DNA from: Chloroflexota bacterium
GTDB lineage: Bacteria > Chloroflexota > Limnocylindria > P2-11E
Length of the DNA: 64,000 nucleotides
Assembly: GCA_038040265.1 (NCBI GenBank)
Contig: JBBPIP010000008.1
Coordinates: forward strand, 24,844-88,843
Direction of reading: 5' to 3'
The notes beneath the pieces were generated by a model. It made no database searches and was not told the DNA's origin. It saw only the letters and a list, made by a program, of their open reading frames with translations. Below are positions 6,158 through 42,746 of this stretch, one piece after another; within the stretch, counting starts at the first letter, position 1, and each line of letters starts with the position of its first letter. The translations under genes were made by a program, and so were the position numbers.

Positions 6158-8836
6158 ATGGCGAAGACGATCGAAAGCCCACCCCAGTCCGCGCTCGATC
6201 TCGCGGAAAGGAACTTCCGCCCGGCCGCCGTCGAGGCCGACCTCTACGGCTGGTGGGAGCGGAGCGGCTTCTTCACGCCCGACGAAGGAAGCAAGACGAA
6301 GCCCTTCGTCATGATGCTGCCGCTCCCAAACATCACCGGCGATCTGCACCTCGGGCACGCGCTCGGGTTCGGCGGATACGAAGACCTCATGGCCCGTTAC
6401 CACCGCATGCGCGGCGAGCCGACGCTCTATATGCCTGGCACCGACCACGCGGGGATCATCGCGCAGGTCGTGGTCGAGAAGGAGCTCGCGAAGGAGGGCA
6501 TCACCAGGCAGCAGCTGGGCCGCGAGAAGTTCCTCGAAGAGATGTGGAAGTGGATGGACCACTACCGCCCGCGCATCGAGAAGCAGCTACGCATGCTCGG
6601 ATGTTCTCTCGACTGGTCGCGCCCGAATTTCACGATGGAGCCCTCGAAGCAGCGAGCGGTCCGTACGCACTTCATCCGCCTGCACAAGAAGGGTCATCTC
6701 TACCGCGCCGATCGGATCGTGCACTGGTGCCTGAAAGATCAGACGACGTACTCCGATCTCGAGGTGAACCACATCACACGGACCGACACGCTCTATTACG
6801 TCCGCTATCCGTGGGCGGAGCCGATGCCGCCGGGAACCCCGGACGTGATCGTCGCGACGACCCGTCCGGAAACGATCGTGGCCGACGTCGCGGTCGCGGT
6901 GCATCCGGACGACGAGCGGTGGAAGGCACATGTCGGAAAAGAGGTGTTGGTCCCCGCTGTCGAGCGGAGGGTGAAGATCATCGCCGACGAGGCGGTTGAC
7001 CCGAACTTTGGAACGGGCGCGCTCAAGATCACCCCTGGCCACGATCAGACCGACTTCGAGATCGGGCAGCGCCATGGCCTGCCTGTGCTTTCCGTCATCG
7101 ATAAGCGCGGGATGATGACGCCGGCCGCGGGCCCACTCGCCGGTCCGGACCGCGAGGCCGGCCGCAAGATGATGGTCGAGAAGCTGCGCGCTTCCGGGCT
7201 GCTCGTGAAAGAAGAGCCGATCACCCACGCGGTCGCGGTGCATGACCGCTGCGGCACCGTGGATGAGCCGCTCGTGCTGAAGCAGTGGTGGGTGCGGATG
7301 GACCGGCTCGCGCCGCCGGCGACCCTGGCCGTTCGAAGTGGCCGTATCACCATCGTGCCGAAGTACCAGGAGAAGGTCTATTTCAACTGGATGGAGAACA
7401 TCCGCGACTGGCCGGTGTCGCGGCAGATCTGGTGGGGCCACTCCATCCCGGCGTGGTACTGCCGCGATTGCGACAACGTGATCGTCCCCGACGAGGAAGC
7501 GCCGGACCCGGCGCGCTGCACGCGCTGCCGCAGCGACGACATCTATCAGGACCCGGACGTGCTCGACACGTGGTTCTCGTCAGGGCTGTGGCCGTTCAGC
7601 ACGCTCGGATGGCCGGACAAGACGTCCGACCTCAAGCGGTACTACCCCGGATCCGTGCTCGAGACCGGCTACGACATCCTGTTCTTCTGGGTGGCCCGCA
7701 TGATCATGCTCGGCCTCGAGCACATGGGAGAGATCCCATTCGAAACCGTGTACCTGCACGGTCTCGTCCGTGTAGGCACGGTCAAGATGAGCAAGTCGCT
7801 GGGCAATGTGGTGAGCCCGGTCGAATTCATCAACGAATACGGAGCCGACGCGTTGCGCTACGCGCTAGTGCACGGGATCGCTGCGGGCGCAGATTCGCAG
7901 CTCTCGCAGAACAAGCTCGACCATGCGCGCAACTTCGCGAACAAGCTCTGGAACATCAGCCGCTTCGTGCTGAAGGCGATGGACGAGCATCCGGAGGCGT
8001 TCAAAGGACACACCGCCGATCGGCGGCCGAAGCCGGAGGGTGAGGCCGCGCGCTGGATCCTCTCCCGCACCGACGCGGCGATCGCCGAGGCCACGCGACT
8101 CATCGATGGGTACCTCTTCGGCGAGTACCTCGTGGCGCTCGAGAGCTTCATCTGGAGTGAGTTCGCCGACTTCTACGTCGAGCTGGCGAAGCCCTCGCTC
8201 CGGGGTGCCGATGCCGCGGAGGCGGTGCGCACGCTCGCATACGTCCTCGACCGGGTGCTTCGACTCCTGCACCCATCCATGCCGTTCATCACCGAGACGG
8301 TCGCGTTGCAGGTCTGGCAGCGCGCCGGCAAATCCGATGAGGCGCCGTCGCTCGTCGTTTCGGAGTGGCCGAAAGCCGGGCAGCGCGACCCCGTGCTGGA
8401 GGAGCGGTTCGGCGCGTTCATCGACGTGGTCCGGGCGATCCGCAACACGCGACAGGAAGGCGGGATCGATCCATCCGCGCGCGCGAATGTCTCGCTTGCC
8501 GGCGAGACCGCGGCCGTGCGCGATCTCCTGAAGCAGATCGGAGAGCTGACCCACAGCGAGGTGACGATCGGCAAAGGCGAGGGCACCGCGACAGTGGTGC
8601 GTGCGATCGAGATCCGGCTCGTGGTCGAGCGAGACGAGGCGGAGGAGAAGGAGAGGCTCGAGCGAGACCTCGATGAAGCGCGACAGATGCTGCAGCGGTC
8701 GCGCGACCTTCTTGCGAAACCCGGCTTCGCCGACAAGGCGCCCGCCGAAGTCGTCGCGAAAGAGAAAGCAAGACTCAAAGAGCGCGAGGAGCGCCTGAAG
8801 CTCCTCGAAGCCGAACTGAAGAGGCGCCGGAGCTAA
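6158..8836 (+). CDS. valS: valine--tRNA ligase
   Basis: HIGH-type motif (PNITGDLHLGHA), KMSKS present, C-terminal coiled coil. I chose the ATG at 6158 with RBS GAAGGAGG (6141-6148), not the TTG at 6134 that lies inside the terminator. Confidence 0.97.
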   Translation: MAKTIESPPQSALDLAERNFRPAAVEADLYGWWERSGFFTPDEGSKTKPFVMMLPLPNITGDLHLGHALGFGGYEDLMARYHRMRGEPTLYMPGTDHAGIIAQVVVEKELAKEGITRQQLGREKFLEEMWKWMDHYRPRIEKQLRMLGCSLDWSRPNFTMEPSKQRAVRTHFIRLHKKGHLYRADRIVHWCLKDQTTYSDLEVNHITRTDTLYYVRYPWAEPMPPGTPDVIVATTRPETIVADVAVAVHPDDERWKAHVGKEVLVPAVERRVKIIADEAVDPNFGTGALKITPGHDQTDFEIGQRHGLPVLSVIDKRGMMTPAAGPLAGPDREAGRKMMVEKLRASGLLVKEEPITHAVAVHDRCGTVDEPLVLKQWWVRMDRLAPPATLAVRSGRITIVPKYQEKVYFNWMENIRDWPVSRQIWWGHSIPAWYCRDCDNVIVPDEEAPDPARCTRCRSDDIYQDPDVLDTWFSSGLWPFSTLGWPDKTSDLKRYYPGSVLETGYDILFFWVARMIMLGLEHMGEIPFETVYLHGLVRVGTVKMSKSLGNVVSPVEFINEYGADALRYALVHGIAAGADSQLSQNKLDHARNFANKLWNISRFVLKAMDEHPEAFKGHTADRRPKPEGEAARWILSRTDAAIAEATRLIDGYLFGEYLVALESFIWSEFADFYVELAKPSLRGADAAEAVRTLAYVLDRVLRLLHPSMPFITETVALQVWQRAGKSDEAPSLVVSEWPKAGQRDPVLEERFGAFIDVVRAIRNTRQEGGIDPSARANVSLAGETAAVRDLLKQIGELTHSEVTIGKGEGTATVVRAIEIRLVVERDEAEEKERLERDLDEARQMLQRSRDLLAKPGFADKAPAEVVAKEKARLKEREERLKLLEAELKRRRS

Positions 8837-8863: not shown

Positions 8864-8992
8864 GCGGGTGGCACGGGGACCGGGGGTTGCTCGCGAGCGT
8901 CCATCCGGCGGCGTCATGGAGGACGGGGCGAAACACGCGCGGAGCCGACCGGTAGCGAGTGAGCAATCCCGGTCCCCGGGACAGGACCCGCG
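8864..8992. repeat. ~130-bp GC-rich palindromic intergenic element, copy A
   Basis: Starts GCGGGTGGCACGG and ends CCGGGACAGGACCCGCG. Internal long imperfect hairpin (GGGGACCGGG 8875-8884 pairs with CCCGGTCCCC 8968-8977). The terminal motif is repeated again at 8997-9012. Same termini as copy B in inverse orientation. Confidence 0.6.
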
Positions 8993-9027
8993 TCAACCGG
9001 GACAGGACCCGCCCCGCCATGTCGCAA

Positions 9028-9066
9028 CGAAAAGCGCCGGAGCCCTCACGGCCCCGGCGCTTCTTC
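9028..9066. terminator. bidirectional hairpin terminator between convergent valS and the ABC operon
   Basis: GCGCCGG (9034-9040) pairs with CCGGCGC (9054-9060), flanked by A-run/T-run (CGAAAA ... TTCTTC). Confidence 0.6.
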
Positions 9067-17460: not shown

Positions 17461-17472
17461 CACACGCCAGCC

Positions 17473-17606
17473 CGCGGGTCCTGTCCCGGCTACGCGGGTC
17501 TCTCCCTCAGCGCACCCTCCCCGCCCTGCAGCTCACTTCGTTCGCTGCGGGCGGGTCCCCGGGGCACCCGCGCTTCGTGAGAGACCCGCTGCGCCGTGCC
17601 ACCCGC
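17473..17606. repeat. ~130-bp GC-rich palindromic intergenic element, copy B (inverted relative to copy A)
   Basis: CGCGGGTCCTGTCCCGG (17473-17489) is the reverse complement of the copy A end motif. CCGTGCCACCCGC (17594-17606) is the reverse complement of the copy A start motif. Internal hairpin GCGGGTCTCTC (17494-17504) pairs with GAGAGACCCGC (17579-17589). Confidence 0.6.
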
Positions 17607-17735
17607 GGGCGGCATGGAACTAACCAGGTAGCGCAGCCGTATATGAACTTAGGGTCTTCCTACGTTGTTTCCTAAGAAGCCCTGATACTTCTTGCAGCAG
17701 CCGCGGAAACTCAGCGAAGAGGGGTAAGTAGCACG

Positions 17736-23267: not shown

Positions 23268-23350
23268 TGGGGCCCCCGCCCCCGGGGCCCCTACCCCGTC
23301 GGGGGCCCCTACCCCGTCGGGGGCCCCTACCCCCGGGGCCCCTACCCCTG
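23268..23350. repeat. tandem GGGGCCCCTACCCC(GTCG) repeats (G-run / palindromic intergenic array)
   Basis: Direct reading: ggggcccccgcccccggggcccctaccccgtcgggggcccctaccccgtcgggggcccctacccccggggcccctacccctg. It fills the gap between two minus-strand genes. Confidence 0.9.
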
Positions 23351-34250: not shown

Positions 34251-34287
34251 GCGGCGCGCTTCGCGCTCAGGGGCCCCTGCCCCTGCC
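34251..34287. repeat. short dispersed GGGGCCCC-core motif (inverted orientation)
   Basis: GCGCGCTTCGCGCTCAGGGGCCCCTGCCCCTGCC lies just after the acyl-CoA dehydrogenase stop. It is the reverse orientation of the 1549 copy. Confidence 0.6.
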
Positions 34288-41011: not shown

Positions 41012-42746
41012 GGACAGGGGTAGGGGCCCCTGGGCGCAGAGCGCTCTCGTCGCGAAGATATCTGGGGCGCACCGTTCGATGCGGGAGGCGATCGGGGCTC
41101 TGCCGGCGCCGCGCTGGGGCGAGAAGCTTCCAGCGGGCTGGACGCTGAAAGAGATGGTCGGCCATCTGGCGTACTGGGAAAGCACGATTCCCGCGTTCGT
41201 CGATTCGCTTCGCACCAGGACGCCGCGCGACGGCGACGCCGACGTCGACGAGCAGAACGCGCGCGCGGCGGCCGAGGCGCGCGGCCTCTCACGGGACGAG
41301 GTGCTGCGTCGCTGGGACGACTCGCATGCCGAGATGCTCGAGGTCGCGCGGGGCCTGACCGACACCGAGCTGGCGGACGACACGTTCATGAAGAAGTTCG
41401 AGGGCGAGAGCTACGGTCATTACCCGGACCACTACGCAGACCTCGCCGCCGCGATCAAGGACAAGGACGACGTCCTCGCGCTGGTGCAGACGTCGTGGAC
41501 CAATTTCCGCCTGGCGATCGGCTCCATCGGCCTCCCCGGCCTCGAGCGCGAGACATCCACCGGTTGGACATATAAGGACCTCGCCGCGCACGCCGCAGCT
41601 TGGGAGGACCGGACGGCGACGCGCCTCCGAACGTTCCGCGAGAGCGGGTCAAAGACGTACCCAGGCGTCGACGACACCGACGCGTTCAACGCCGCGGTGG
41701 TCGAGCGTACCCGCGGCCGCGGCGCCGGCGAGGTCGTCCGCGAGCTCGACGCCGCCCACGCGCGGATCGTCGACGAGATCGGGAAGCTGACGCCGAAAGA
41801 GATCCACGCGAACGACGATTGGGTCATCGCGGTCGTCGCGGGGAACACGTACGGCCACTATGCCGAGCACCTCGACGAGGTCTTCGCCGCGGTGCCGAAG
41901 CGTCCGGCGGAACTCCTCGACAAGATGCGCGAAGGCTGGCGGCCCTTCCGGCGCTCGCTGAACCGCATCGGCCTCTCCACGTTGTCGGAGACAACGCCGA
42001 CCGGCTGGACCTACAAGGGAATGCTCGGCCATGTCGCTCACTGGATGGAGAAGCTGGCAGCGGAGCTGCCGAACCGTCTCGAGGGCCGCCGCGGCCCCTT
42101 CCCCGACGTCGATGCCGAAAACGCGCGCGAGGCCGAGGCTGGGAGGTCGGTATCTGCGCACGACGCCGTCGAGCGCGTGCTTAACGCATACAAGGACGTT
42201 GTTGACCTTGTGGCGGCTCTTCCTGCGGACCGCGACATCAACTTCCTCGCGGTGCGCCTCGTCGTCGGCGAGACGTACGACCACTTCGCCGAGCATCGCG
42301 GTGAGCTCGAGGCCGCACTGCCACGGACCGCGGCCGCGTATGTCGACCGCATCGAGAAGGTCTGGAAGCCGTTCCGCGCCGCGATCCGCGACCGCGGTCG
42401 GGCGGGTCTGGGCGAGCGCACATCGAGCGGATGGACGTACAAGGATCTCGTAGCGCACGCAGCCGGGTGGATGGCGCAAACCGTGCGCGAGATGCAGACG
42501 ATGGAATTCCCGACGGGCTGGACCAAGGAGACGATCCAGGAATTCAATGACCGCTCCGTACGGACGCATGAGCTCGTCGGACCCGAAGCGATGATCGACG
42601 AGCTGGACACGCTGCATGACCGGCTCGTGGAGACCCTGCGCGGGCTGGGTGATGGCGCCGTCGACGAGCGCATCGCCGGCACGATGCCCTACTACACGTA
42701 CCTCCACTGGGAGGAGCATTTCGCGGAGCTCGGCGTTCCTCTGTGA
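40983..42746 (+). CDS. protein of four tandem DinB/YfiT-like four-helix-bundle repeats
   Basis: Four ~140-aa repeats. Each has GWTxK(D/E/G)(L/M)xxHxAxW and a C-terminal HxxxH (GHYPDH, GHYAEH, DHFAEH, LHWEEH). The 3' end overlaps the B12-subunit start (GTGA). The 5' start is uncertain (GTG 40983 or later). Confidence 0.7.

Follow-up and report, generated by a model that had tools for sequence, protein, structure and literature searches.

Two inverted intergenic elements in a Limnocylindria genome are copies of a modular hairpin repeat with an invariant foot, in-place turnover and apparent horizontal and intragenomic spread

The intergenic elements that follow valS (copy A) and a PBP gene (copy B) raise the question of why two stretches of different interior should share exact ends in inverted orientation. 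The window, a stretch of 64,000 nucleotides (C8:24844-88843), comes from a Limnocylindria MAG (Chloroflexota) of 2.68 Mb and 67% GC, and a preliminary description had placed the pair among REP/MITE-like elements or a family of 3′-UTR structured RNAs. We find a modular hairpin repeat with an invariant foot that turns over in place, and its distribution suggests that it has spread both horizontally and within genomes. What is conserved, and what the preliminary description had overlooked, is the foot of the hairpin, which recurs in many phyla. With a little more confidence than doubt, we consider A and B to belong to two subfamilies of a foldback repeat that is non-coding and non-autonomous, spreads horizontally and has a foot read by a putative trans-acting factor.

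The 13-mer left end GCGGGTGGCACGG and the 16-mer right end CCGGGACAGGACCCGC are common to both copies, inverted, at the positions first reported, and the right end recurs beyond copy A, as had also been stated (Table 1). Copy A begins where it was said to begin; its end moves from 8992 to 8991, the conserved right end starting CCG[G/T]GACAGG. With up to one mismatch, the 13-mer has two matches in the window against 0.23 expected, a number reached in 3 of 100 shuffles, and with up to two mismatches the 16-mer has three against 0.14 expected, reached in none of 100. The interiors are indeed of different subfamilies: relatives of the T1b type of copy A lie at C6:5510 and C6:79972 in the same genome and at five loci elsewhere, and near-identical S2 copies of the copy B type were found at seven other loci. 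The hairpin arms proposed by eye are exact reverse complements in both copies (A, GGGGACCGGG at 8875-8884 with CCCGGTCCCC at 8968-8977; B, GCGGGTCTCTC at 17494-17504 with GAGAGACCCGC at 17579-17589), and RNAfold returns a single long hairpin for each, at -75 kcal/mol for A and -84 kcal/mol for B. The additional right end is a right-end stutter or remnant, and tandem right ends resembling it occur in three other genomes, with units of 44 nt (four times), 49 nt (three times) and 38 nt (five times).

Table 1. Positions of the two copies, their accessory parts and a neighboring hairpin in the window
Feature	Position	Strand	Details
Copy A, subfamily T1b	8864-8991	+	128 nt; left end 8864-8876, right end 8976-8991
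Second, solo right end (CCGGGACAGGACCCGC)	8997-9012	+	5 nt past copy A
Ordinary GC-rich hairpin, A-run and T-run at its sides (AAAAGCGCCGG...CCGGCGCTTCTT)	9030-9066		Outside the repeat
Outer stem of copy B, locus-specific (GCCC)	17470-17473		Pairs with 17607-17610; extends P1 by 4 bp
Copy B, subfamily S2	17474-17606	-	133 nt; left end 17606-17594, right end 17489-17474
Partner of copy B outer stem (GGGC)	17607-17610		Pairs with GCCC at 17470-17473

By Pfam, copy A stands between the ValRS gene and a convergent solute-binding-protein gene; it has the same sense as valS and begins 27 nt beyond the stop codon of that gene (8834-8836). Copy B, by the same assignments, stands between the PBP transpeptidase gene and moxR, 13 nt from the PBP stop codon and antisense to both genes. 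The proposal of a 3′-UTR RNA family fits poorly, since copies placed after a stop codon run either with or against that gene and B is antisense to the PBP gene. The ordinary hairpin beyond copy A is likely a bidirectional terminator that serves both valS and the convergent SBP gene; five loci of sister species without the repeat also have it. The gap between copy B and moxR (about 17615-17735; orthologous loci L179-L200) also holds genus-conserved blocks, GGAACT..., CCGTATATGAAC..., CCCTGATACTTC... and GCCGCGGAAACTCAACGAAGAGGGGTA, which look like a promoter or structured leader of moxR and are there with or without the hairpin repeat.

The earlier alternative, a chance likeness of spacers with no further copies, fails on a genome-wide search: the 2.68 Mb contain 10 exact matches to the left end and 7 to the right, against chance expectations, estimated from base composition, of about 0.9 and 0.02, respectively. 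Pairing of exact ends gives nine full copies of 127-171 nt, and the host total is about 11 full copies (11 foot matches), plus variants and truncated copies or remnants. Among copies with variant ends, C4:97028-97172 is of the S3 type and C13:38773-38899 carries a compensatory change in the basal helix P1 (GGGGGU/ACCCCC). The host genome also has minis that keep both ends and have lost the interior, with deletion end points that differ each time. A candidate diverged copy with one mismatch per end lies at C10:38805-38934 (-), between two Clp_N paralog genes.

A first scan for the exact pattern in one genome per prokaryote species returned at least 117 loci; nearly all of the matches listed belong to soil Chloroflexota or Candidatus Limnocylindria MAGs, and the 117 listed yielded 133-148 distinct copies, whose interiors fall into at least four subfamilies, among them T1, T1b, S2 and S3. 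Within the class, 151 Limnocylindria genomes were surveyed. All 14 genomes of the window's genus carry the repeat, at 2-40 copies each, as do four genomes of one sister genus (1-5 copies) and three distant genomes (1-2 copies of another type); it is absent from 130. This is the distribution of horizontally acquired, proliferating DNA rather than that of an RNA gene long resident in the lineage. The number of full copies in the host genome, together with the counts across the genus, establishes a repeat family and not a chance pair. Several MAGs of the SMAG series carry the labels Bathyarchaeia, Udaeobacter or Gemmatimonadota on contigs of the window's own Limnocylindria genus; DASPWX010000132 (G002:C132) is another such contig, and these records appear to be mislabeled in their public taxonomy.

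The repeat unit, 125-170 nt long (up to 171 nt in the host genome), is a rod-like hairpin, with a few shorter derivatives made by internal deletion. Its basal helix P1, GCGGGU/ACCCGC plus outward pairs specific to each locus, is separated from a second helix, P2, by an asymmetric 2x5 internal loop in which GG on the 5′ side is opposite ACAGG on the 3′ side; P2 starts with CAC/GUG, and A faces G there in most Limnocylindria copies. P1, the 2x5 loop and P2 fold in every copy examined. Beyond this foot runs a long variable rod with symmetric, purine-rich loops, and the T1 scaffold remains nearly constant, whereas about 28 nt at its apex have diverged freely from species to species. On average, the flanking DNA adds 3.8 contiguous Watson-Crick pairs to P1, versus 0.58 with shuffled partners. 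Variants with a nested 27-nt palindrome are also seen among the copies. A second, much smaller repeat family, CAGGGGCCCCT[A/G]CCCCTG, occurs in the window at 34268-34285 (+), 41015-41032 (-) and, with one mismatch, 23333-23350 (+), and has 19 copies genome-wide, often as a doublet with TGGGGCCCCTACCCCAT or after GCGCTTCGCGCT. In some of the large hairpins (C5:166783, C16:15597 and four further loci) it is nested immediately 5′ of the right end, in one orientation or the other.

The foot reaches far beyond Chloroflexota. Unrelated interiors had already appeared in the first scan, at 1-18 copies per genome, in Solirubrobacterales, another actinomycete, Thermoanaerobaculia and a CPR genome. A second scan, with the pattern GGGTGGCAC-N55-85-GTGACAGGACCC, returned at least 120 loci, and the matches listed carry labels of at least 12 phyla, including Solirubrobacterales, other Actinomycetota, Acidimicrobiia, Aminicenantes, other Acidobacteriota, Nitrospira (including the cultured N. 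moscoviensis), Deltaproteobacteria, Gammaproteobacteria, Planctomycetota, Omnitrophota, Methylomirabilota, Binatia, Dormibacterota, Melainabacteria, Margulisbacteria, Saccharibacteria and Daviesbacteria. MAG taxon labels are fallible, and some of the odd labels of the first scan are the window's genus misnamed (the contig G002:C132, for example); flanking GC of 33-70% and distinct interiors show that the cross-phylum hosts are truly different genomes. Foot copies number 1-81 per genome, against 0-1 for a reversed control pattern. The complete Acidimicrobiia chromosome OZ241886 has about 80 near-identical copies with a foot-to-foot core of 58 nt, and the copy in Nitrospira moscoviensis is at about 1.8135 Mb of NZ_CP011801. 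Interiors are specific to the lineage, as outer arms often are; examples of such arms are the conserved TIR-like GCATCT..TTTCCGTGAT of the Aminicenantes type and the arms CGCCAGGCCGG...CCGGCCGGACAACGCAAC of the Acidimicrobiia type. In a Saccharibacteria genome the outer arms are locus-specific, perfect inverted duplications of 25-34 bp of flank; in this assembly (JARIHL01, three loci) every copy tips a perfect inverted duplication of its own flank, and at L241 the duplication takes in the stop and final codons of both convergent genes.

Most copies are found 7-40 nt from a stop codon and may point either way. Of the contexts counted with a crude GC3-based gene caller, 38 were convergent, 22 tandem-sense, 22 tandem-antisense and 4 divergent; divergent gaps are occupied by some copies in low-GC genomes as well. 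Comparison of orthologous gaps shows that the occupants change. The element is absent from the valS gap of seven close relatives, which have the ordinary terminator hairpin only, and the same gap is occupied in four species by T1b, S2, T1 or S3. The PBP gap holds S2, T1 or S3, in both orientations, in twelve species; it is short and empty in one related species, and two species have other sequence instead. One further gap presents three types and two orientations in five species. Among flank-matched pairs, the type differs in 116 and is the same in 67, and the orientation is inverted in 73 and the same in 110. Solo left or right ends adjoin full copies, and there are tandem arrays of the right end plus flank, which, like the solo ends, look like footprints of replacement. 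With about 20 copies and about 700 convergent gaps, repeated independent hits on one gap would be unlikely, which suggests that occupied gaps are inherited and renewed in place. Mobility is deduced from distribution, as the data include no recent insertion matched by a clean empty site. Within a subfamily, the scaffolds are near-identical across species whose flanks are saturated, a difference that can also reflect purifying selection on a function.

The placement of copies just past stop codons, with convergent gaps over-represented, would also be expected of a terminator or mRNA-stabilizing hairpin evolved by the host and merely similar at many genes. The hairpins are very stable (predicted -70 to -118 kcal/mol across copies), and U-runs follow some AT-rich copies. 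We nevertheless regard this origin as very unlikely: independent terminators would not be expected to carry an invariant 21-nt split motif across phyla, valS has a separate, conventional terminator that is kept in species without the element, most copies have no U-tract and some stand in divergent promoter gaps, and the horizontal, patchy spread argues against an origin in situ.

If the repeat moves, an enzyme might be expected near it or in its hosts. No RAYT/IS200-type gene, the transposase suggested at first as a companion, was found: Y1/RAYT (PF01797) is missing from all 20 genomes searched (8 of the genus, 6 of other phyla that carry the repeat and 6 class relatives), and a control search was positive in 6 of 14 reference genomes. 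TnpB (PF07282) was found in 1 of 25 genomes, the host itself, by a single match at C1:34858-35043; this lies outside the window and is a TnpB-type zinc-ribbon match of 37 bits in a 575-aa open frame. Reverse transcriptase (PF00078) is present in 0 of 6 genus genomes and in 4 of 25 overall. The 924 neighboring ORFs include no recurrent transposase and only common housekeeping paralog families, and the multi-copy ORFs of the host genome are Clp_N and secreted-protein paralogs only, again with no transposase. A search of IMG/VR gave no match and thus no sign of phage carriage. A DUF222-HNH endonuclease was considered as a general partner and rejected as a local association, since it was absent from 29 other genomes tested. 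The chromosome OZ241886.1 contains at least 17 copies, 60-90% identical, of a REP13E12-type DUF222+HNH endonuclease gene, several of them (for example, L320:1059-2483 (-) and L321:1074-2606 (-)) bracketed by hairpins and some interrupted by stops.

The hairpin could also be a folded ssDNA recombination site, like attC or the attP of CTX phage: a tyrosine recombinase would bind the two short helices around the unpaired center, and site-specific exchange would produce swaps and inversions. As in attC sites such as the Vibrio VCR, the layout comprises a basal helix, an asymmetric unpaired center, a second helix and a variable terminal hairpin (30-140 nt), the lengths are similar, structure is conserved above sequence and the copies sit at 3′ ends of genes. 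The swaps and inversions at fixed gaps and the strand-specific asymmetry of the fold, described below, are likewise consistent with such a site. However, the ends have no RYYYAAC/GTTRRRY box or other R/L box consensus, and the copies are single and dispersed beside housekeeping genes and do not form cassette arrays. The integron integrase profile (TIGR02249) exceeded its cut-off in 3 of 21 genomes (G045, G046 and G051), none of them Limnocylindria, and those integrase genes have no copy within 1.5 kb. Systems that depend on ssDNA are usually biased by replichore, and there is no such bias among the approximately 80 copies of the complete chromosome OZ241886, where 39 are on the plus strand and 42 on the minus strand (origin at about 0 and terminus at about 2.2 Mb by GC skew); no replication-strand bias was seen in the host MAG either, whose skew is too weak. 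We judge a recombination site of this kind to be highly improbable.

A functional structured RNA family is a likelier alternative. The foot (the GG/ACAGG loop between its two helices) would either bind a protein or form the core of a small ribozyme, with the distal hairpin acting as a structural spacer, and the presence of several copies in a genome would recall twister and hammerhead ribozymes. The evidence closest to this reading is structural. In 82 distinct feet from all lineages, paired cells make up 87.2% against 69.1% when shuffled (matched by 0 of 500 shuffles), and the covariation score is 0.427 versus 0.114 shuffled and 0.05-0.09 with partners slid, so that the foot-flanking helices covary strongly; the foot nucleotides of this set never vary, by construction of the search, and the test covers the adjoining helices only. 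In 248 of 281 copies, the strand read from left to right end is predicted to be the more stable of the two when folded (mean difference -7.4 kcal/mol), and G.T exceeds A.C at paired positions (139 versus 65). Fold energy and G.T excess hint at one functional strand, RNA or ssDNA. A strand-specific fold combined with random genomic orientation fits a single-stranded copying intermediate of either DNA or RNA, and a transcribed functional RNA could also fit.

Further observations favor an RNA: the strict conservation of the foot across phyla, sense-strand loops that are purine-rich, GNRA-like and tandem-GA-like, an inner motif, CGCGCAG-hairpin-GAGCAC, that recurs in several phyla, a copy that lies downstream of two tRNA genes in the same orientation and the lack of any mobility enzyme among those sought. 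Like twister, hammerhead, pistol and hatchet, the repeat has conserved loop nucleotides between covarying helices, variable peripheral stems and several to dozens of intergenic copies in scattered lineages with no clear gene association; unlike them, its conserved core is only the 2x5 internal loop, which is all that minimal forms, such as the Acidimicrobiia form of 29-58 nt, retain and is small for a ribozyme. The genomic evidence points the other way. The copies have both orientations relative to flanking genes, copy B being antisense between two plus-strand genes, and no promoter is conserved in the flanks. The patchy, genus-restricted distribution, with most genomes of the class lacking the repeat, the existence of truncated copies and, at orthologous gaps, the presence/absence differences, inversions and type swaps also argue against an RNA gene. 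A riboswitch or leader was rejected on the downstream genes, which are unrelated (peptidase, kinase, dipeptidase, TonB receptor, Yip1 and CBS transporter), and a single-copy conserved RNA gene in Nitrospira was rejected on neighbors that vary by species and a tandem degenerate copy at one locus.

No copy in the window had an Rfam 15 match (E up to 5), nor did 6 loci of other phyla (E up to 0.1) or, at the gathering threshold, a further 14 loci; no description of the repeat was found in Rfam or the searchable literature, which is not proof that none exists. Resemblances to the sigma-54 -24 box TGGCACG, SRP RNA, RNase P RNA, a K-turn, a CsrA site and the ssoA CS-6 motif were considered and dropped, as their spacing or partner motifs presumably do not fit or the lineages presumably lack the factor. 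On both sets of evidence, a functional structured RNA family seems to us rather unlikely.

In behavior, the repeat is closest to foldback repeats of the ERIC/Correia/RUP type and to REP/REPIN. ERIC/IRU, Correia (NEMIS), RUP and YPAL are bacterial MITE-like imperfect palindromes of about 100-170 bp. The hairpin repeat shares with them a length of about 125-170 nt, one long imperfect hairpin, lack of coding capacity, an intergenic position in either orientation, internal indel variants, presence/absence between relatives and, probably, cotranscription with neighbors, and so belongs to the same descriptive class, a resemblance of kind only. It differs from these families in that only the foot is conserved, and across phyla, while the interiors are modular subfamilies; its ends are not mutual inverts (GGCAC on the left, GACAGG on the right), and no parent IS is known for it. 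Correia elements feature a 26-bp TIR and a TA duplication, neither of which is present here, nor is any other direct target duplication.

With REP/REPIN the repeat has in common a dispersed extragenic hairpin, often after convergent genes, a short conserved sequence plus stem, a non-autonomous nature and, possibly, being acted on as a folded single strand. REP units are palindromes of about 20-40 nt with a 5′ tetranucleotide head, often in inverted doublets, and the RAYT gene is typically flanked by repeats. The present unit is 3-5 times the length of a REP and not an inverted doublet, its copies number tens and not hundreds, there is no GTAG-type head or, in the 20 genomes, RAYT/Y1, and the ends share only GCGGGT/ACCCGC. 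Like MITEs it is small, non-coding and multi-copy and fills orthologous gaps in some species that are empty in others; unlike MITEs, its flanks are mutually reverse-complementary and not direct repeats, its left end is the reverse complement of the right for 6 nt only, and no parent element was found. The REP/MITE-like label first proposed therefore stands for a dispersed family with conserved ends, a variable self-complementary core, a fitting copy number, patchy taxonomy and presence/absence between sister species, and does not extend to true terminal inverted repeats, direct target duplication or the size of a REP unit. Derivatives of IS200/IS605 (PATE, omega-RNA ends) and retro-mobilized RNAs (SINE-like, group II or retron-related) do not fit the Y1 and TnpB counts and the reverse transcriptase count of the genus, respectively, just as the genus lacks the integrase of attC systems. 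The repeat thus lacks the defining features of REP-RAYT systems, classical MITEs, attC sites, IS200/IS605 derivatives and retro-elements.

We infer that the foldback repeat is selfish or near-neutral DNA that spreads between and within genomes, and that the foot would serve as the recognition module for a trans-acting factor, either an enzyme or a host protein, acting on the folded single strand. Occupied gaps may then be renewed in place by ectopic recombination or conversion, or by template switching, through the shared foot, which at about 25 nt per side, including the first internal loop, would provide homology enough for exchange. Exchange at the foot would replace interiors, and the palindromic P1 would allow them to be flipped. 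Quasipalindrome correction is an established mutational process, and template switching of this kind at the hairpin base could turn flanks into complementary outer stems, with the perfect 25-34-bp flank palindromes of Saccharibacteria as the extreme outcome; it could also produce inversions, right-end stutters and internal deletions. When transcribed into mRNA, the hairpin probably serves as no more than a tolerated, perhaps mildly useful, 3′ stem-loop.

A bolder reading, which we put forward only tentatively, is that the foot is the working part of an undescribed pan-bacterial system, either a new class of small structured RNA or the site of a novel hairpin-specific enzyme. In its RNA form, the system may be protein-binding or self-cleaving and, by analogy, may multiply like twister and hammerhead ribozymes. 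In its enzyme form, the foot may be a folded-ssDNA site through which hairpin cassettes are inserted, flipped and exchanged at gene ends by an enzyme unrelated to RAYT, IS200/IS605, integron integrases or reverse transcriptases.

Interspersed hairpin repeats are well known; what is new here is a letter-perfect foot shared across phyla, exchangeable interiors and the absence of every known mobilizing enzyme. The 21-nt split motif GGGU-GG-CAC ... GUG-ACAGG-ACCC is the same in CPR, Actinomycetota and Nitrospira, with the remainder replaced in each lineage, and conservation of that kind argues that something reads the foot. A cultured host, Nitrospira moscoviensis, is at hand, as is the complete chromosome OZ241886 with its many copies. 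For soil MAGs, the repeat explains many intergenic stretches called as structured and gives rise to assembly breaks and rapid local rearrangement. More broadly, it marks horizontal exchange among distant soil and sediment phyla.
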